Assembly (NCBI GenBank): GCA_041671305.1
Contig: JBAZBX010000001.1
Coordinates: 40,821-104,820 of the forward strand
Source of the DNA: Patescibacteria group bacterium
GTDB taxonomy: Bacteria; Patescibacteriota; Patescibacteriia; 2-01-FULL-39-33
Length of the DNA stretch: 64,000 nt
Reading direction: 5' to 3'
Made by a program: the position numbers and the translations under genes. How positions within the stretch are numbered: position 1 is the first letter of the stretch; each line of letters begins with the position of its first letter. Under the pieces are notes generated by a model. The model saw nothing but the letters and a program-made list of their open reading frames with translations, had not been told where the DNA came from and searched no databases. Below are positions 7,775 to 38,397 of this stretch, in pieces.

Positions 7775-7892
7775 TGGCTGGGTGTTTATGAACAAATCCG
7801 AACCGAATTTAAACAAAAATCATGATCGGGCGGGCGGAATCCCCCCCAAACCCCTCCTTCCGCCCGACCTAAACATCTGGACGGCTGAGGCG
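7775..7892. repeat. 118-bp inverted repeat, left copy (IR-L)
   Basis: 100% identical to the reverse complement of 9326..9443. Contains an internal TCGGGCGG...CCGCCCGA hairpin. Confidence 0.9.
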
Positions 7893-7904
7893 AAATAGCA
7901 ATTT

Positions 7905-8951
7905 TCAATTTTTCTTTGGCGGCGAATTTTTTTCTCCTTCTTTAACTATTTCCCTTACTTCATTGTAACTTATCTGCCTTGGCCATAATAGATTGCCGTG
8001 AGCATCATAAATTGGCAGAAGAAAATCAACCCGGTCTCCATAAATCTTTCTCATTAATGTAGCTATTTCATTTGCTTTATTTTGTTTGCTTTCATCATCA
8101 TCAACTTCTTTATACCTATGTATTTTTCTTAAAACTTCTTGTGGGACATATGGTTGTTTTTTATATAAATTATCCATTTCCTCCTCTGTCTGTTCTGCCA
8201 TGGCTCTTATTACAATACCCTTAAACCGGTCTGGAGCAATTCGAAAAGACAAAGCGTAGCCCTCAGAATAGTCAGGAATCCTTCTGTCTCCTTCTTCAAA
8301 ATATTCTTCTCTTTCTGATCCTGGTCTAGCATGGGCTCCGAAAGTATTACTTTTATACTGTAATTTTTCTCTTTTGCCAAGGTCATAATCCAATGCATAA
8401 TTGGCAATTTCAGTATTTTCCTTAAAATCTGCTGTATCAAAAATTATTCCCAAGGAGGTTTGGCTTGTTCCAATGGGTCTAAACCAATGGGCGTCTTCGA
8501 TTTTTCTTAAATCCCGACCAACAATATTGAAAAAAACAACGGCCCCCATTTTTTTTCTAACAGCGCTAACCCAATCTTGTTCAGGACTGTTAGGATTCAA
8601 TTTTCCTAATAAACCCTTTCGAAGTATACCGCCTAATTTAATGGTGGAATTATCATCTTCAAGTATTCTAACAGAATGAAATCCTGTCCCCGGTTTATTT
8701 ATATCTTGTATTTTTTCCATTATTCTCTCAACCACTTCAGGTAGTAGTTCGGGAGGAATAGGGATGTCGGAATTATCAATATTTTGATCTGCATTTTCCA
8801 CGTCCAAAATATCGCTTTCGACTTGATAATCATCAGGAGAAAAATCCTCACCCTTCTCAGGATATTTTTCTTTCAATTTTTCTTGTAGCCTTTGGGCTTC
8901 TTTTAGAGCGTCATCGTTGTTTAATCGACCGCTTTCAAATCTTTTTTCCAT
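7905..8951 (-). CDS. Hypothetical 348-aa protein (cargo of the IR-flanked cassette)
   Basis: Long ORF 5 nt downstream of the XRE HTH gene on the same strand. No recognizable domain. Confidence 0.55.
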   Translation of the reverse strand: MEKRFESGRLNNDDALKEAQRLQEKLKEKYPEKGEDFSPDDYQVESDILDVENADQNIDNSDIPIPPELLPEVVERIMEKIQDINKPGTGFHSVRILEDDNSTIKLGGILRKGLLGKLNPNSPEQDWVSAVRKKMGAVVFFNIVGRDLRKIEDAHWFRPIGTSQTSLGIIFDTADFKENTEIANYALDYDLGKREKLQYKSNTFGAHARPGSEREEYFEEGDRRIPDYSEGYALSFRIAPDRFKGIVIRAMAEQTEEEMDNLYKKQPYVPQEVLRKIHRYKEVDDDESKQNKANEIATLMRKIYGDRVDFLLPIYDAHGNLLWPRQISYNEVREIVKEGEKNSPPKKN

Positions 8952-8955
8952 AAAT

Positions 8956-9162
8956 TTATTTCAATAACTCCCACGCCTCCACTCCTAAAGCGTGAGCTAG
9001 TCTATTTAAATTTTCTAATGTGGGATTAACTTGACCACTCTCGACTCGACATATATAGGCGCGATCTATTTTACTAGAACGAAAAACATCGCCTTGCGTA
9101 AGACTTTTTTCCTCTCTTATTCTCTTGAAATTATACGCTAATTTTTTACTTAATTTATGCAT
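8956..9162 (-). CDS. XRE/Cro-C1-type helix-turn-helix transcriptional regulator
   Basis: LTQGDVFRSSKIDRAYICRVESGQVNPTLENLNRLAHALGV, a classic HTH_3 pattern; 68 aa. Confidence 0.75.
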   Translation of the reverse strand: MHKLSKKLAYNFKRIREEKSLTQGDVFRSSKIDRAYICRVESGQVNPTLENLNRLAHALGVEAWELLK

Positions 9163-9245
9163 AGTTATCCACAGTCATTTTAACAATTATTGTATATCTT
9201 AACAATATTGTAGTATACTACAATATGTAAGTGAAATTTTGCATT

Positions 9246-9272
9246 AAGAAAAAGAAAAAGTTTGATTCTGGC
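9246..9272. repeat. 27-bp inverted repeat IR2-a (partner 9533..9559)
   Basis: AAGAAAAAGAAAAAGTTTGATTCTGGC is the exact reverse complement of 9533-9559. Confidence 0.85.
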
Positions 9273-9302
9273 CAAAATAAAGTTCGAGCCGATTTTTTTA
9301 AT
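9273..9302. repeat. 30-bp inverted duplicate (B') of the recombinase 3' coding segment 10901..10930
   Basis: CAAAATAAAGTTCGAGCCGATTTTTTTAAT equals the reverse complement of 10901-10930. Confidence 0.85.
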
Positions 9303-9325
9303 CTGGTTCTTTGGCGGTTTTATTC

Positions 9326-9443
9326 CGCCTCAGCCGTCCAGATGTTTAGGTCGGGCGGAAGGAGGGGTTTGGGGGGGATTCCGCCCGCCCGATCATGATT
9401 TTTGTTTAAATTCGGTTCGGATTTGTTCATAAACACCCAGCCA
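9326..9443. repeat. 118-bp inverted repeat, right copy (IR-R)
   Basis: Reverse complement is identical to 7775..7892. The outer end CACCCAGCCA resembles the tRNA-Gln 3' end CCCGCAGCCA. Confidence 0.9.
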
Positions 9444-9512
9444 GTTTCGTTTTTCATTTTTTAAAACCGAATCCCAACCGTTTTTTGGCTTAAATTCAAA
9501 TTTTTTGCCTTG
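9441..9512. repeat. 72-bp inverted duplicate (A') of the tRNA-Gln 3' end plus downstream flank (10931..11002)
   Basis: The reverse complement of 10931-10999 is identical to 9444-9512, and the CCA is also shared. Confidence 0.85.
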
Positions 9513-9532
9513 GTTCCGATTACAATCGGAAC
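9513..9532. promoter_or_regulatory. 20-bp perfect dyad site GTTCCGATT-AC-AATCGGAAC (candidate recombinase crossover site or HTH operator)
   Basis: Perfect 9-bp arms around a non-palindromic AC dinucleotide, 40 bp upstream of the serine recombinase start. Confidence 0.35.
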
Positions 9533-9559
9533 GCCAGAATCAAACTTTTTCTTTTTCTT
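9533..9559. repeat. 27-bp inverted repeat IR2-b
   Basis: Reverse complement of 9246-9272. Confidence 0.85.
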
Positions 9560-9574
9560 TAATTCAATACAAAT

Positions 9575-11062
9575 ATGAAATACTTTCTTTATGCCCGCAA
9601 GTCGACAGACGAAGAGGATCGTCAAGTTCTTTCAATTGAAGCCCAGCTCGCGGAGTTGAAGGAGTTAGCCGCCAAAGAAAAATTGGAAATTGCGGACTCG
9701 CTCTGCGAGTCCAAAACCGCCAAAGAACCAGGCCGAAAAATTTTCGGCGGAATGCTCGCTCGGATTGAAAAAGGTGAGGCCGACGGAATTTTAGCGTGGC
9801 ACCCAGATAGATTGGCCAGAAATAGCGTTGATGGTGGAAAAATTATCTACATGGTGGATATCGGCCAGATCAAAACGCTAAAATTCCCGACTTTTTGGTT
9901 TGAGAATACTCCGCAAGGGAAATTCATGCTCAATATCGCTTTCGGCCAAAGCAAATACTATGTTGATAATTTAAGCGAAAATGTTAAACGTGGTTTCAGG
10001 CAAAAGTTAAGGCGCGGCGAATATCCCAATAAAGCGCCCATCGGCTATCTTAACGACCGAACAGCTAAAACCGTGCTCATTGATCCTCTGCGCGCCAAGC
10101 TCGTGATAAAGATGTTTAAGATGTACAACACGGGAGAATTTTCGCTTAAATTTCTTAAAGATAAGTTTTGCGATATTGGCCTGACCAGCAAGCGCGGCAA
10201 AATCCTGACTGTCGGCATGATTTCTAACATATTGAATAATCCCTTTTATTGCGGAGTATTCAAGTTTAATGGCGAAATCTACCAAGGCAAGTACGAGCCA
10301 ATTATTTCCAAGAAGCTTTTTGATGAAGTTCAGGCGGTAATGAAAAACCGAGGACGGCCGCTCGGGCAAGACAAACACGATTATGCTTTTACTGGACTTA
10401 TGAAATGCAAGTGCGGCGCCTGCATTACCGCCGAACGGCAAAAAGGCCATATCTATTATCGCTGTACGAAAAAGCTTGGAGCCTGCGACGAAAAGTATAT
10501 CCGCGAAGAAAAACTGCTGGAGCAATTCCATGGCCTTTTTCAAAAAGTTTCTTTGCCAGATGACTGGATTGACAAGATGCTCGCTAAACTCGATGAGGAA
10601 CAAAAAAGCGACATGAAGTCATCGGTAGGTCTGATTGACGAGGTAAAAACGCAAATAGGAGCCATAGAGAGCAAGCTAGATAAGTTGCTCGATGATCGAT
10701 TAGAAGGATTACTCGATAAGGACGACTATTTGCGGAAGAAGGAACAACTCATCAATCAGAAAATTGCTTTTGAGGAGAAAATCCAGTCAATCAGGCAAAC
10801 GGGAAATAATTGGCTCGAACCGATGCGGGAATTCCTTTCCGCCAATAAACAAACCAAAAAAGTCGCCAATAGCGGCGACATTCTGGAAATCCGAGCATTC
10901 ATTAAAAAAATCGGCTCGAACTTTATTTTGCAAGGCAAAAAATTTGAATTTAAGCCAAAAAACGGTTGGGATTCGGTTTTAAAAAATGAAAAACGAAACT
11001 GGCTGCGGGACCTGGAGTCGAACCAAGATAACAGCTTTCAGAGAGCTGCGTCCTACCATTAG
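9575..11062 (+). CDS. Large serine recombinase (resolvase/invertase catalytic domain, recombinase domain and zinc-ribbon)
   Basis: YARKST catalytic-serine motif near the N-terminus; CKCGACITAERQKGHIYYRC zinc ribbon; 495 aa. The last ~20 codons are antisense to tRNA-Gln. Confidence 0.9.
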   Translation: MKYFLYARKSTDEEDRQVLSIEAQLAELKELAAKEKLEIADSLCESKTAKEPGRKIFGGMLARIEKGEADGILAWHPDRLARNSVDGGKIIYMVDIGQIKTLKFPTFWFENTPQGKFMLNIAFGQSKYYVDNLSENVKRGFRQKLRRGEYPNKAPIGYLNDRTAKTVLIDPLRAKLVIKMFKMYNTGEFSLKFLKDKFCDIGLTSKRGKILTVGMISNILNNPFYCGVFKFNGEIYQGKYEPIISKKLFDEVQAVMKNRGRPLGQDKHDYAFTGLMKCKCGACITAERQKGHIYYRCTKKLGACDEKYIREEKLLEQFHGLFQKVSLPDDWIDKMLAKLDEEQKSDMKSSVGLIDEVKTQIGAIESKLDKLLDDRLEGLLDKDDYLRKKEQLINQKIAFEEKIQSIRQTGNNWLEPMREFLSANKQTKKVANSGDILEIRAFIKKIGSNFILQGKKFEFKPKNGWDSVLKNEKRNWLRDLESNQDNSFQRAASYH

Positions 11063-11073
11063 ACGATCCCGCA
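11000..11073 (-). tRNA. tRNA-Gln (anticodon CUG)
   Basis: Manual fold gives U1-A72 acceptor pair, U8, D-stem GTCT/GGAC, anticodon loop CTCTGAA with U33 and A37, T-loop TTCGACT, discriminator G and an encoded CCA. Confidence 0.8.
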
Positions 11074-13244: not shown

Positions 13245-13330
13245 CTATGATACGTGAGTTGTTTATAAGTCATTCATATTTTACTAAGATTAAGACGATA
13301 AGTCAAAAATGCAAAACAACATAATATTGA

Positions 13331-13507
13331 AGCAAGATTGGGGGTTTGGGGGAAGCACCTTTCGCCAAAGCGCGAGTGTAAGCCGAACCTCAGCCAGCAG
13401 GATGAGGTGAGCGAAACGAAGCGCGACTAAGCAAGATAAAAAACACTCCGAGCATAAGGCGAAATTGCGTCCCCCAAAACCTTTGGTTCTTTCAGTTATG
13501 AAAGAAC
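13331..13507 (+). ncRNA. Copy 1 of a ~180-nt GC-rich structured element (candidate sRNA or cis-regulatory leader)
   Basis: Near-identical to 23770..23945. Terminal GGGGGTTTGGGGGA / TCCCCCAAAACC pairing, internal helices, and a 3' hairpin GTTCTTTC-agttat-GAAAGAAC. Confidence 0.45.
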
Positions 13508-13680
13508 ATAAATTAAACTTTTTTAAAAAATGGGTTGAATATAAGAGAAATTATCCAAAATTAGATAAAATATAGGATTAATACTTCCTATCTATTGACA
13601 AAAGTACAAATATATACTATATTATAGGGTCACAATGAGTGACGGAAGCACATCACAACCAAAAAGGAGCATTGACTGTC

Positions 13681-14085
13681 ATGAGAATAATCATGAATAC
13701 CAACTTCGGGGACAGAGAATATGGCCCGGAACAAGACAAGGAGGCCTCTTTCCGACTAGTCCTCGCGACGATGACCTGGATATGGACACGATTCCTGCCG
13801 TTGGCCATGGAATTGGAATACATGAAAGAAGCGAAGGTGCATTCCTTGACATTCTCAATTCCCAGCTTTGAACCTTCGGGCATTCTTCTGACAATTGTTT
13901 TTACGAAGCATGGTAAAAAGCGGCATAGACACAAAGCTTTCAAATTGGATATTGACCAAAATGGCTTGGCGAAACTGGAGGTTCCCAAAAATCCGACACC
14001 GCCCACAACTGCCATATGGTCAGATCCGATGACACCCGAACAATTGATTGAGTCGATCAAGGCAACAATGGAGATTACGGTATGA
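13681..14085 (+). CDS. Hypothetical protein (GC-rich island, first of two coupled genes)
   Basis: AAGGAG lies 8 nt upstream of ATG 13681 (the ORF-track start at 13639 is probably too early). GC is about 50%. The stop overlaps the next start as ATGA. Confidence 0.45.
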   Translation: MRIIMNTNFGDREYGPEQDKEASFRLVLATMTWIWTRFLPLAMELEYMKEAKVHSLTFSIPSFEPSGILLTIVFTKHGKKRHRHKAFKLDIDQNGLAKLEVPKNPTPPTTAIWSDPMTPEQLIESIKATMEITV

Positions 14086-14552
14086 AGACATTTTTCTCTG
14101 TTAAGGCTGTGGATCTGGACAATGACCGCCTCTCCAGCCTAATGGCGTTCTGCCTTTGGCTCCAAGGCGAGTTTAACCAACTCCTCTCCGACAGTCTTGG
14201 CGATGCCTGTGACATAATGCGTTGGACGATTAAATATTCCTCCAAGGGATTTATTGAGGCGTTCGCCGAATTTACACACGATGGTGAACGCCAGGGTGGA
14301 TTATGGACACAATATCCTGGAACGGCCCGATGCCTGCTAAGGTACACCGATCCCGAGATTGAAGTCTATACCCATCTGCTTTTCTGCGGAGAAGGCATCG
14401 GATGGAAGGATAACGGTATTTCAGATCTCGTTTCACGTGACCCCACCGAGATTGTGAAGGTACTCTCCGACGCCATAACACAAGGTATTCTGGAGGATCG
14501 TCGTTACAACGAACTCCATAAAGACGATATTGTTGAATTTGAAGGTGTGTAA
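14082..14552 (+). CDS. Hypothetical protein (GC-rich island, second gene)
   Basis: 156-aa ORF translationally coupled to the upstream gene; no recognizable domain. Confidence 0.45.
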   Translation: MKTFFSVKAVDLDNDRLSSLMAFCLWLQGEFNQLLSDSLGDACDIMRWTIKYSSKGFIEAFAEFTHDGERQGGLWTQYPGTARCLLRYTDPEIEVYTHLLFCGEGIGWKDNGISDLVSRDPTEIVKVLSDAITQGILEDRRYNELHKDDIVEFEGV

Positions 14553-14650
14553 TGCGACCTTCACCAACCGGCAGAAGCACGATCGCCATCGTGACTTTCT
14601 GCCCCCAACTGAATTTACAAATTCTCATTTGCAACTTCTGAGGGTTATAA

Positions 14651-14684
14651 ACAAAAGACGGAATAATTCCGTCTTTTGTTTTAA
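14651..14684. terminator. Bidirectional rho-independent terminator
   Basis: AAAGACGGAAT-aa-ATTCCGTCTTT perfect hairpin followed by TTTGTTTT, between convergent genes. Confidence 0.7.
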
Positions 14685-22311: not shown

Positions 22312-22692
22312 CTACCTCACTGCCAGCTCGTGAGCCGGCCGTTGTGCTTTGTGATACATCCCAGTCATCACCTTCTCTCCGTCCGTCAAGCTGCACACAG
22401 CACACAGCACATACTTCGGGAAAATTTGACTTCCCCTGAATTGTCCACACGCATCACAAAGTTCCATTGCAGCCCGAAGATTGGCCTGAGCATGCTCCTT
22501 TGCTCCCTCCGAGCCAAATTCAACTATCCACTGAGCTGCCCGACGCAACCGAGAGTTATTGATACAGGGATCTTCAACGCCGTCCCTGTCCGGACTATTC
22601 AATAGCTCCTCCGCCTTGTCCAAACAACCAAGAACTCCGCGCGCGTCTTGAATGCGCTTCTGTTTCTCATCACAACAAACCAACTCCGACAT
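22312..22692 (-). CDS. Cysteine-rich hypothetical protein (GC-rich island)
   Basis: GGAAGGAG lies 8 nt upstream of the ATG; 126 aa with about 9 Cys including CDACG and CAVC pairs; GC about 55%. Confidence 0.5.
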   Translation of the reverse strand: MSELVCCDEKQKRIQDARGVLGCLDKAEELLNSPDRDGVEDPCINNSRLRRAAQWIVEFGSEGAKEHAQANLRAAMELCDACGQFRGSQIFPKYVLCAVCSLTDGEKVMTGMYHKAQRPAHELAVR

Positions 22693-23152
22693 GTTTCATT
22701 CTCCTTCCAACGTCTGAACCCTAAAATGTACGACACAAAACAAAAAATCAGCTCCGACCGACAGGGTGGGCTGACTGACTCTCTTATCTAAATTCTTCTA
22801 GACAACGTCAATACTTCCACCCCTGGGCAAGAGTAGCAACAAGCCTAACAAATTTTGAGTGAAAGTTTTATTCATATACTTATATAAGTATAATAGCAAA
22901 TATATCAGAAAAGTCAAATACCTTCTTTATCTCAAAGCCACTTTTCTAGAAAAGTGGCGCAAAAGTCGCAAGCAGACAAAATCATGGCCAAATTTTCTCT
23001 GCATTCGCTAAGCCACATGCGCCACTGCTGTGGCTATATGTTGGCTTTTAACGCTCATGCTTAGAGAAAATTGGCACCCGCCCGAACGTACCGTTCGGTA
23101 CGGGCGGGCAATATTTTGTAATGCTTGCATGGGTGCAGAAAGTTGAATTTGA

Positions 23153-23186
23153 ATAAAAACCCGCACCCTAAATCGATGGGTGCGGA
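23153..23186 (-). terminator. Rho-independent terminator (minus strand)
   Basis: CCGCACCC-taaatcgat-GGGTGCGG followed by a T-run on the minus strand, after the stop at 23212. Confidence 0.65.
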
Positions 23187-23211
23187 CTGTAACGCGTGTT
23201 GAAATGTTTCA

Positions 23212-23553
23212 CTATTGGGCGAAGAAAGCCTTGCGGATTTTCCGTCCCACGGAGGAAAGTATCTTCTCGAGATCATGGGGCATGTCTTCACAGGACATAG
23301 TGAGGGCAAAATAATTTCCGCTCTTCTGCTCGATGAAGCTTTCAAGATTGATTGACTCGCCATTGTTTGTCATGGAGTCAAGGGCGAGTTTGATTTTTGC
23401 CCAATTTTCCATATTTTGCGGATGCAGTTCGAAATACATGATCCATTTATCCGCACTTGGGCGCCTGGAAGCTGCAACGACTCGCCACTCTTCAGATCCG
23501 CCCACACTACAGACGGGAGCTATCCTCAAATTGCCAATTTTTCGTATTCGCAT
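23212..23553 (-). CDS. Hypothetical protein (GC-rich island)
   Basis: AAGGAGG lies 7 nt upstream of the internal ATG (MRIRKIG...). The longest ORF extends to 23673. Confidence 0.4.
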   Translation of the reverse strand: MRIRKIGNLRIAPVCSVGGSEEWRVVAASRRPSADKWIMYFELHPQNMENWAKIKLALDSMTNNGESINLESFIEQKSGNYFALTMSCEDMPHDLEKILSSVGRKIRKAFFAQ

Positions 23554-23769
23554 CGCTTGTTCCTCCTTTGGTTGTGCGACGGAATCTCGTATGTTTTGAG
23601 AGCACGGCTGCTCTAAGGAACTATTCCTCGGAAAAGCAGTTAATTTAACGACCTTACCGAGAAATGGTTTCATATTATAATATAATAAATTTAGACAAAT
23701 GTCAAAATTCTCGTAAGTTGTAATTAAATATTTTTATATTATGTATTTTTTAAAAAGCACAAATATCTA

Positions 23770-23945
23770 AGCAAGATTGGGGTTTGGGGGAAGCACCTTT
23801 CGCCAAAGCGCGAGTGTAAGCCGAACCTCAGCCAGCAGGATGAGGTGAGCGAAACGAAGCGCGACTAAGCAAGATAAAGAACACTCCGAGCATAAGGCGA
23901 AATTGCGTCCCCCAAAAGCTTTGGTCCTTTCGCTTACGAAAGGAC
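23770..23945 (+). ncRNA. Copy 2 of the ~180-nt structured element, about 75 nt upstream of metA
   Basis: About 98% identical to copy 1 over the body. The 3' hairpin GTCCTTTC-gcttac-GAAAGGAC carries compensatory T>C and A>G changes relative to copy 1. Confidence 0.45.
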
Positions 23946-24019
23946 AGAAGAAATATTTGACCAAATCCGGAAACCATTGATATAATTAACTAGATTTAGT
24001 TAATAATCCATTATTCATT

Positions 24020-24928
24020 ATGCCAGTAAACGTCCCCGACAGTCTCCCAGCCGTAGGAATCCTAAAAAAGGAAAATATTTTTGTCATGGAGCAATCACGC
24101 GCCTCACATCAAGATATTCGTCCACTACGTATTGCCATTGTAAATATCATGCCTCTCAAATTAGTCACGGAAACACAACTTCTGCGCCAGCTTTCTAATT
24201 CCCCGCTTCAAGTGGAAATTGACTTGGTTCATATGGCCGAACACCAGTCCAAAAACACTCCCAAAGAACATTTGGATTTTTTCTACAAAACATTTGATCA
24301 AATCAAAAATCAGAAATACGACGGCCTGATTATTACCGGCGCGCCAGTGGAAATGATAAATTTTGAGGAAGTTGATTATTGGCCGGGCATCACAAAAATA
24401 ATGGAATGGAGCAAAACCAACGTGACTTCTACACTCCACATCTGCTGGAGCGCGCAAGCCGGATTATATTATCATTACGGAATCAACAAACATCCCCTGG
24501 AGGAGAAAATGTTCGGGGTTTTCTGGCACAAAGTCAATGATTCAAAATGTTTGCTGATGAGAGGATTTGATGATCAATTTCTGGCGCCTCACTCCAGACA
24601 TACTGGCCTAGACCGTAATGATATTATAAATAATAAAAACATTAAGCTTGTCGCCGAGTCAATTGAAGCTGGGCCGTACATTATTGTATCGCGCGATCAT
24701 AAACAAATCTTTGTGACTGGACACAGCGAATATGACGCGCTCACCCTCAAAGGAGAATATAATAGAGACATTGAAAGAGGATTAAACATAAATATTCCCA
24801 ACAATTATTTTCCTAATGACGATCCGACCAGACAGCCGGAAGTGCTTTGGCGCTCTCATGCCAATCTGCTTTTTTCCAATTGGCTTAATTATTACGTTTA
24901 TCAAGAAACTCCATTTGATTGGAGTTAA
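24020..24928 (+). CDS. metA: Homoserine O-acyltransferase (MetA family, HTS/HTA)
   Basis: Near-colinear with E. coli MetA: [23 protein letters not shown]...ITGAPVE...[12 protein letters not shown]...FLAPHSRH. Confidence 0.9.
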
Positions 24929-24939
24929 ATTAAAAATAT

Positions 24940-25464
24940 ATGACCAAATCAATTGACTTGGAATTTGAAAAAGCAATACGATTTCTAGTTAAATATATGC
25001 CAGTTTCTGACAAGAATAGCCGAAAACCTATTTTAGCCCATGGTATCCGCGTTGGAGTTTATCTTTATGAAAATAATTATTCACAAGATATTATTATAGC
25101 TGGACTTTTACATGACACTATAGAATGGTCCAAAGCTAGCAAAGGTATAATAAAAAAAGAATTCGGCAATAATATAACTAAGCTGATTTTAGCCAACACT
25201 AAAAAAGATTCCATCATAGATAAAGAAGAAAAAACCAACGAACTTATCAAACGTTGCATTAAAAACGGCCAAGACGCTTTGATTGTCAAAACGGCTGATA
25301 TAATTGATAGTTTCAAATGGTATTCAAAACAGAATAATAAGGATCAGCTAGGATATTGCATGAGAAATGCCAATGCAATTCTTAAATTCAAACCGAGTAA
25401 TTTTCATGACAACATATTTGGCGAACTAAAAAAGTGGCAAAAAAAATTTAATAATCTAAGCTAA
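24940..25464 (+). CDS. HD-domain phosphohydrolase-like protein
   Basis: H...HD motif (LAHGIRV...GLLHDTIEW); 174 aa. Confidence 0.55.
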   Translation: MTKSIDLEFEKAIRFLVKYMPVSDKNSRKPILAHGIRVGVYLYENNYSQDIIIAGLLHDTIEWSKASKGIIKKEFGNNITKLILANTKKDSIIDKEEKTNELIKRCIKNGQDALIVKTADIIDSFKWYSKQNNKDQLGYCMRNANAILKFKPSNFHDNIFGELKKWQKKFNNLS

Positions 25465-38213: not shown

Positions 38214-38397
38214 ATTTGTAATAATTAAAATTACGAATTAATAATTGAAAAAATAAAAACTGTGGTTTTCCACAGGGTAAAATAGCTAAATCTAGCTAAT
38301 TCCTCGGTAGGTCTTATGTCTTTAATGACGCCTACTGTCTGTGGAAAATTAAGTTATGCATAAATTATAACAAAATATAAAGAAAAGTCAACATTTA

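Follow-up and report, generated by a model that had tools for sequence, protein, structure and literature searches.

The 64,000-nt stretch of DNA analysed here (the window) contains two copies, both on the plus strand, of a non-coding structured element of about 180-195 nt, named E. The element is filed as a new addition to the interspersed intergenic repeats; it is rare and highly conserved, and in the few Patescibacteria (CPR) genomes that carry it, it occupies insertion sites that vary between strains. With a probability of about 0.5, E is a module of a mosaic repeat family resembling ERIC, BOX and MITE elements, that is, mobile DNA lacking its own enzyme, moved in trans and sometimes carrying cargo genes. 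It sits upstream of pre-existing promoters and does not regulate metA, and a false riboswitch lead upstream of that gene is removed from the annotation. Few repeats are expected in the small, streamlined genomes of CPR bacteria. E marks the entry points of strain-specific ORFans into otherwise syntenic housekeeping regions, and the sites of E and of its partner module X offer a handle on accessory-gene acquisition by episymbionts.

Structure and extent of the element

An earlier note on this DNA had described a structured element in two copies, which is confirmed: a repeat search of the window returned a single 171-nt direct-repeat pair (13341-13511 / 23779-23949) with 95% identity, and the plus-strand RNA of copy 1 folds at -68.7 kcal/mol (z = -5.4, with 0/200 shuffles as good). 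The copies had been placed at 13331-13507 and 23770-23945; the location was right, and the conserved unit is slightly longer, at about 13319-13518 and 23758-23954. Copy 1 was recovered by reading of the window, pairwise alignment, the repeat search and nhmmer (13322-13513, E-value = 2e-67), and copy 2 by alignment, the repeat search and nhmmer. The parts of the two copies are:

13319-13518, plus strand: E copy 1
13340-13366, plus strand: 5' arm of the long inverted repeat in copy 1, GGGGGTTTGGGGGA-A-GCA-CC-TTTCGCC (23779-23804 in copy 2)
13367-13426, plus strand: apical domain of copy 1, containing the hairpin ACCTCAGCC-AGCA-GGATGAGGT (23805-23864 in copy 2)
13427-13448, plus strand: variable linker J of copy 1, CTAAGCAAGATAAAAAACACTC (23865-23886 in copy 2)
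13458-13484, plus strand: 3' arm of the long inverted repeat in copy 1, GGCGAAA-T-TGC-G-TCCCCC-A-AAACCTTT (23896-23922 in copy 2)
13486-13507, plus strand: 3' hairpin of copy 1, GTTCTTTCA-GTTA-TGAAAGAAC, with no U-tract after it
23758-23954, plus strand: E copy 2, at the right end of a 1035-bp insertion
23924-23945, plus strand: 3' hairpin of copy 2, GTCCTTTCG-CTTA-CGAAAGGAC, ending 9 nt short of the insertion boundary

Copy 1 thus runs from an A/T-rich leader through the long imperfect inverted repeat, the apical domain, the linker and the 3' hairpin to a 9-nt A-rich tail; the first 11 nt of linker J repeat the leader sequence. Over the core of about 150 nt the two copies differ exactly three times, as many as the earlier note had counted. 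The first G run is one G longer in one of them, and the other two differences are A/G at 13441 and C/G at 13481. The 3' hairpin is far more diverged than the core in the pairwise alignment, and similarity is gone past it. The minus strand of copy 1 is predicted to fold about as well as the plus strand (-66.8 kcal/mol, z = -5.7), and E folded as ssDNA has a z of -6.1.

E is non-coding, as every reading frame is shifted by indels and no synonymous-type variation is present. The longest open frame, on the minus strand, had 0 matches among 5.8 billion proteins, a search that was also meant to catch spurious gene calls. No further partial copies were found in the window with nhmmer --max or with searches for the hairpin and leader motifs.

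Other copies and host range

The search for further copies that had been suggested in the earlier note was productive, with four found in other assemblies. An exact-word scan of 185,579 species genomes (GTDB) placed E in one MAG only, Buchananbacteria bin-902, with copies on two separate contigs (L020, 195-387, and L032, 2387-2579), and a scan of 241 million JGI metagenome contigs added one copy each on L059 and L062. These genome- and collection-wide scans used exact patterns rather than covariance models. The six full copies (two in the window, two in bin-902 and two on JGI contigs) are 93-98% identical and all are intergenic, while their flanks are non-homologous and nothing else in the other four loci resembles the window. 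Presence in four independent assemblies rules out an assembly artefact. In the same population, contigs built from short reads stop within E or X, as is expected of repeats, and E and X explain the fragmentation of short-read assemblies at these sites.

The neighbours are dnaX and two ORFans (copy 1), metA (copy 2), ileS (L020), SLT-infB-rbfA (L059), pheS (L062), and a 172-aa ORFan with rpmB/M50/rpsL (L032, where the next gene, rpmB, is convergent). The orientation of E relative to the housekeeping genes is mixed, four against two. There are two copies in the whole bin-902 MAG and two to three in the window organism. The third would be that of L059, which comes from the same sample as L091, a contig 99.8% identical to the window, and so is probably a third copy of the window organism. 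The DnaX of the window has its best named relatives in Falkowbacteria and Buchananbacteria MAGs, and among the collections searched the family is, as far as seen, confined to a narrow Buchananbacteria-like clade of Patescibacteria.

No match to E came up by BLAST among 50,697 phage and 72,556 plasmid records, and exact-pattern scans of IMG/VR returned nothing for three E patterns and chance hits only for one X pattern. The Rfam scan proposed in the earlier note yielded no family: Rfam 15 has nothing over E or X at gathering thresholds in the window, nor at E<=10 for both copies and the adjoining X and E of L062. Its only matches within the window are a tRNA-Gln and an L10 leader. The Rfam searches rule out SRP RNA, which the dnaX neighbourhood had suggested, as well as 6S, tmRNA, RNase P, T-box, SAM and ykkC RNAs.

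Insertions at the two window loci

Both copies lie at the edge of blocks that are absent from the orthologous sites of relatives. The features of the two sites are:

13313-14632: insertion between dnaX and an 847-aa coupling-protein-like gene (849 aa in relatives), absent from L001, L002 and L006; the right boundary is approximate
13595-13623, plus strand: promoter-like site, TTGACA-17-TATATT (11/12), between E copy 1 and the ORFan operon
13681-14085 and 14082-14552: two ORFans, translationally coupled, GC 0.47
22920-23954: insertion of 1035 bp, absent from L006, in the order X, ORFan gene, E
22920-23149, plus strand: module X, a second conserved palindromic non-coding module and the partner of E
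23212-23673, minus strand: cargo ORFan gene of GC 0.47, coding for 153 aa if read from its first start codon and for 113 aa in the gene call made elsewhere
23957-23986, plus strand: metA promoter, TTGACC-18-TATAAT (11/12), downstream of E copy 2 and conserved in L006, which has no E

At the dnaX locus the block is about 1.3 kb, with E at its left end followed by the two ORFans. The gap between dnaX and the coupling-protein gene is 1460 nt in the window versus 107-253 nt in L001, L002 and L006, whose DnaX proteins are 75-82% identical, and homology with these relatives resumes at about 13312, some 10 nt from the 5' edge of E. A contig from another sample spans exactly 13483-14632, suggesting that the right boundary lies near 14632. 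The two copies of E are not attL and attR of a 10.4-kb island, since the interval between them is syntenic in relatives that lack E. A 21-nt A/T-rich sequence, AAATTATCYAAAATTAGAYAA, is common to 13560-13580 (after copy 1) and, as the reverse complement, to L059 (about 190 nt past E); its distance from E differs between the two, and it may be a small module or a chance match.

At the metA locus, the counterparts of window positions 22919 and about 23955 are contiguous in L006. Two back-to-back -35 boxes make up the empty site, GTCAAAT|TTGACC. The junctions allow a target duplication of 0, 1 (T) or 2 (AT) bp, none of them unambiguous.

X consists of a short hairpin and a long imperfect palindrome, in which compensatory changes are seen between copies (fold z = -6.1). 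It is more widespread than E, with two subtypes, and was also located at L032 1498-1668, L020 1-179, L062 1337-1518, L002 4769-4943 and L004 4333-4498. X and E adjoin directly in L020 and L062. The window and L032 have a minus-strand ORFan between the modules, of 153 and 172 aa respectively, and these proteins are unrelated. The arrangements seen comprise X-E, X-ORFan-E, E alone, X alone, an inverted X with a Y module, and a nested hairpin. The adjoining modules of L062 are bracketed by an inverted repeat of 32-36 bp that the other copies lack. X without E occurs beside dnaX/tRNA-Gln in relatives, in both orientations and also alongside a further X-like module. The X-ORFan-E block could stem from several events rather than one.

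The 153-aa ORFan has its own promoter (23705>23677) and terminator, and a single near-identical relative in the protein database. The cargo ORFs have a GC content of 0.47-0.50 versus 0.39 for the genome, and their proteins match nothing in Pfam, NCBIfam or PADLOC. A cargo protein as the functional partner of E was rejected, as there are no family matches and the cargos of the window and L032 are unrelated.

Several smaller observations concern the same region. A 32-nt perfect GC-rich hairpin, CCCGCCCGAACGTACCGTTCGGTACGGGCGGG, is nested in X at 23077-23108 in this genome only, a mini-palindrome insertion. L002 (4690-5053) and L004 (4068-4499) have identical DnaX and different DNA downstream of dnaX: one strain has X on the plus strand, tRNA-Gln and the recombinase, the other the X-like Y module and then X inverted. 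L089 (ENA ERZ27249449) is 100% identical to the window over 22722-23691 and about 70% identical over a 126-aa ORF (22312-22692, GC 0.53), which places a sharp allele-replacement breakpoint at about 22720, beside the X-ORFan-E block.

Constraint on the core

Variation and structure were assessed on the alignment of the six copies (the two window copies, L020, L032, L059 and L062). In the structure drawn in the earlier note 46/54 pairs are invariant, and as they never vary they are uninformative for or against structure. All the helices quoted there are present in copy 1, but GAGUGU/ACACUC is broken in 3/6 copies ("type B"). An alternative rod (GCGC/GCGC, UGU/ACG, GC/GC and the apical hairpin) fits all copies but is invariant. 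Invariance also extends to 21/24 pairs of the long inverted repeat, and only 2/60 columns of the apical domain vary. Compensatory change is limited to the 3' hairpin, where copy 2 differs from all other copies at two pairs (U-A>C-G and A-U>G-C); the earlier note was correct that pairing is preserved there, but had counted one pair. The suggested covariation analysis thus gives two pairs in the hairpin of one copy and none in the core. The hairpin kept by compensatory change is consistent with the "selection on RNA structure" that had been proposed, but the case is thin, as it consists of two pairs in one sequence, with the other helices invariant and one broken. Of the one-sided changes a single one is informative, A-U to G-U at column 26/144, and only the plus strand tolerates it.

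Sequence conservation is more telling. Variable columns make up 8/22 of linker J versus 5/123 of the rest of the core (Fisher p = 6e-5), and substitutions seen in one copy alone occur about ten times less often in the core than in the hairpin or the linker. The two copies of bin-902 have identical cores (123/123), whereas their linkers match at only 16/22 positions. Gene conversion could not easily skip 22 nt in mid-tract, so every copy seems to be under sequence-level constraint. Nor would one expect such a contrast between core and linker if dead MITE copies were passively decaying; it points to each copy being under selection, as a functional RNA or DNA site would be. The contrast argues for functional constraint on the core and, with the linker free to vary, suggests a real molecular function. 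It is the main argument against a purely passive MITE, and it keeps a functional RNA or a protein-binding reading alive.

Two explanations of the variable segment were rejected. Linker J does not appear to be a guide matching the flanks, since its only match is the internal leader repeat and it shows no co-variation. A template/variable repeat of a DGR does not fit either: the differences are not restricted to adenines, both copies lie between genes and there is no reverse transcriptase in the vicinity. The copy 2 allele from another sample (L092 1-40, equivalent to window 23891-23930) has GCGTACCCC at the position that pairs with the outer-stem G; this base is typical of the other E subtype, and reflects a recurrent change or an exchange between E copies.

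Mobility and likeness to known repeats

Mobility is suggested by the absence of E from the orthologous sites of relatives at both window loci, by its different intergenic sites in different genomes, by its place at the edge of inserted blocks, by its modular combination with X and by its association with ORFan cargo. The cis-acting features would be the long imperfect inverted repeat and the hairpin situated 9 nt from the end; a recombinase or transposase encoded elsewhere may read them as folded ssDNA, duplex DNA or transcript. E would thereby spread among co-resident relatives, and this would explain copies that are 93-98% identical in unrelated flanks. Against mobility, no terminal inverted repeat is common to all copies, and the imperfect inverted repeat of 24-27 bp is set back from the conserved edges, by 20 nt on the 5' side and by 35 nt on the 3' side. 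The copy number, two to three per genome, is low, and no transposase or autonomous element with E or X ends was found in the window, where a large serine recombinase, 2.3 kb from copy 1, is the only recombinase. AAATAW motifs at both ends of E were rejected as target duplications, as they show no co-variation between copies.

The closest analogues are ERIC/IRU, the BOX/BIME mosaic repeats and MITE/MIC pairs, a likeness in behaviour and not in sequence; low copy number and a large invariant core set E apart from all of them. ERIC/IRU elements (Hulton 1991; Wilson & Sharp 2006) are reportedly 127-bp imperfect palindromes with tens to hundreds of copies in Enterobacteria. E resembles them as an intergenic imperfect palindrome of 100-200 bp, non-coding and without its own transposase, that is kept in sequence between species at differing positions and is conserved above the expectation for junk DNA. 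It differs in having two to three copies per genome, in its Patescibacteria hosts, in sharing no sequence similarity with ERIC, in its large conserved apical domain and separate 3' hairpin, and in lying upstream of predicted promoters where ERIC lies inside transcription units.

BOX elements of pneumococcus and the BIMEs/REPs of E. coli are mosaic repeats made of modules. X, E and the small hairpins are likewise intergenic modules in varying order and orientation, and nesting is seen in the 32-nt hairpin within X. However, E and X are much longer (about 180-200 nt) and of very low copy number, and no RAYT-type transposase or GTAG-type motif was identified. MITEs and MICs (e.g. MIC231 of Bacillus cereus) are IS ends with or without passenger genes that are mobilised in trans. 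Adjacent X-E may be compared to a MITE and X-ORFan-E to a MIC, with insertion polymorphism and no encoded transposase in common, but E and X lack terminal inverted repeats like those of a known IS and show no clear duplication of the target site, no parent IS was found, and the two ends are mutually unrelated.

In IS608 the subterminal hairpins lie 19 and 10 nt from the ends. The copy 2 block is similar to this IS200/IS605/PATE type, at a single site, in having hairpins about 17 nt (X, left) and 9 nt (E, right) from its ends and a junction compatible with no duplication. The 150-nt conserved core has no counterpart in these elements, there is no strand bias, and no Y1_Tnp domain, TnpA or TnpB was found in the scan of 30 window ORFs, roughly half of those of at least 90 aa. 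The left flanks of the E copies are not conserved, and no conserved target tetranucleotide was established.

Alternative explanations

That E controls metA and the two-gene island as a riboswitch or other cis-regulatory leader, the reading favoured in the earlier note, is now very improbable. E does have a complex stable fold, it is upstream of the next gene on the same strand in 5/6 copies, and three neighbours (metA, ileS, pheS) are amino-acid related. However, in all four testable cases (copy 1, copy 2, L062 pheS and L020 ileS) E is separated from the gene by a promoter-like site (9-11 of 12), and L006 has the same TTGACC-N18-TATAAT metA promoter without E. A methionine riboswitch upstream of metA was rejected accordingly: the promoter is downstream of E, and E is an insertion missing in L006. 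The note had also asked whether copies precede methionine or SAM genes, and the other neighbours (ileS, pheS, rpmB, SLT-infB) are functionally unrelated, so that near-identical sequence stands before genes with no consistent pathway; in L032 the next gene is convergent. The 3' hairpin, 75-170 nt from the start codons, has no U-tract and therefore offers no expression platform, either as a terminator or by sequestering a Shine-Dalgarno (SD) sequence, and no Rfam family matches. E thus shares a multi-helix fold upstream of metA with SAM-I/S-box-type leaders but differs from them in lying outside the 5' UTR, in its unrelated downstream genes, in the lack of an Rfam match and in being an insertion absent from relatives. 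The small RNA gene or mobile element that the note gave as fallbacks was the right direction. A mobile small-RNA gene is a serious rival to the mobile repeat, though a tentative one. E would then be a functional RNA, acting as a protein scaffold or trans-acting regulator, present in two to three copies per genome and moving between loci and species on tiny mobile DNA; the core would be the RNA proper, the 22-nt linker unconstrained, and the 3' stem-loop a stabiliser of the 3' end. This would account for the contrast between core and linker, including the two same-genome copies that are identical outside the linker, for the hairpin kept by two compensatory pairs, for the G-U pair tolerated on the plus strand only, for the fold z-score and for a conserved block spanning the A/T-rich box to the hairpin. 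That box had been described as a conserved -10-like box, but is merely a loosely conserved A/T-rich stretch with no -35, and no sigma-70-like site of at least 9/12 precedes E at any of the five loci scanned, although consensus promoters are common in the genome. The hairpin lacks the U-tract of the genome's real terminators (e.g. 14653-14682). The core has no covariation and one predicted helix is broken in half of the copies, both strands fold equally well, no Rfam family was found, and E has no synteny and is lacking at the orthologous sites of relatives.

A site that captures foreign cassettes was also considered. E with X would be the recombination site or homology anchor for ORFan cassettes, captured either by a site-specific recombinase, for which the large serine recombinase nearby is a candidate, or through homology-facilitated recombination once DNA has been taken up, and conservation would reflect protein-binding or crossover requirements. 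This is quite unlikely, even though two genomes have different GC-rich ORFans precisely between X and E, and copy 1 is immediately followed on its 3' side by others. The copy 2 junctions are compatible with a 2-bp "AT" crossover in the dyad-symmetric GTCAA-AT-TTGAC, of the kind that serine recombinases use, but also allow more than one crossover placement. A 495-aa serine recombinase with nested inverted repeats is encoded at 9575-11062, X adjoins that gene in relatives in both orientations, and strain L089 has a sharp recombination breakpoint at about 22720; however, there are relatives with the recombinase and without E, the orientation of the cargo relative to E is not fixed, and 170 bp is far longer than known serine-recombinase sites. 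Integron attC sites carry R'' (RYYYAAC) and R' (GTTRRRY) boxes and form cassette arrays with intI nearby. The ends of E, GGGGTTTGGGGGA / TCCCCCAAAACC, do not fit these motifs; there is no array and no intI, nor any tyrosine integrase among the ORFs scanned, and an attC identity was rejected. By analogy with attC/integron or guide-RNA-assisted recombination, E might also serve a still undescribed CPR cassette-mobilising system as its conserved scaffold, RNA or DNA, and jointly with X mark and mediate the capture or exchange of small GC-rich ORFans next to housekeeping promoters; no recognisable enzyme is nearby, and this too is unlikely. The mosaic mobile repeat remains the preferred reading.

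Other features of the window

The large serine recombinase gene (9575-11062, plus strand) is surrounded by nested inverted repeats within 7775-11073, and its 3' end overlaps a tRNA-Gln (11000-11073, minus strand). The inverted-repeat pairs are:

7775-7897 / 9321-9443: 123 nt, 99% identity
9438-9512 / 10931-11005: 75 nt, 100% identity
9273-9302 / 10901-10930
9246-9272 / 9533-9559

The region 7775-11073 looks like an invertible (shufflon-like) or integrase-att region. GTCAAATTTGAC and the predicted junction of the E tail with the outer end of X are candidate substrates of the recombinase.

The metA gene (homoserine O-acyltransferase family, Pfam HTS) is followed after 12 nt by a gene for a 174-aa HD_4 protein (RelA/SpoT-hydrolase-like), the two spanning 24020-25464. 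The pair is unusual for a CPR genome, and metA is kept at the same site in L006. The L10 leader is at 38245-38362 on the minus strand (Rfam RF00557, 57.6 bits, above the gathering score).
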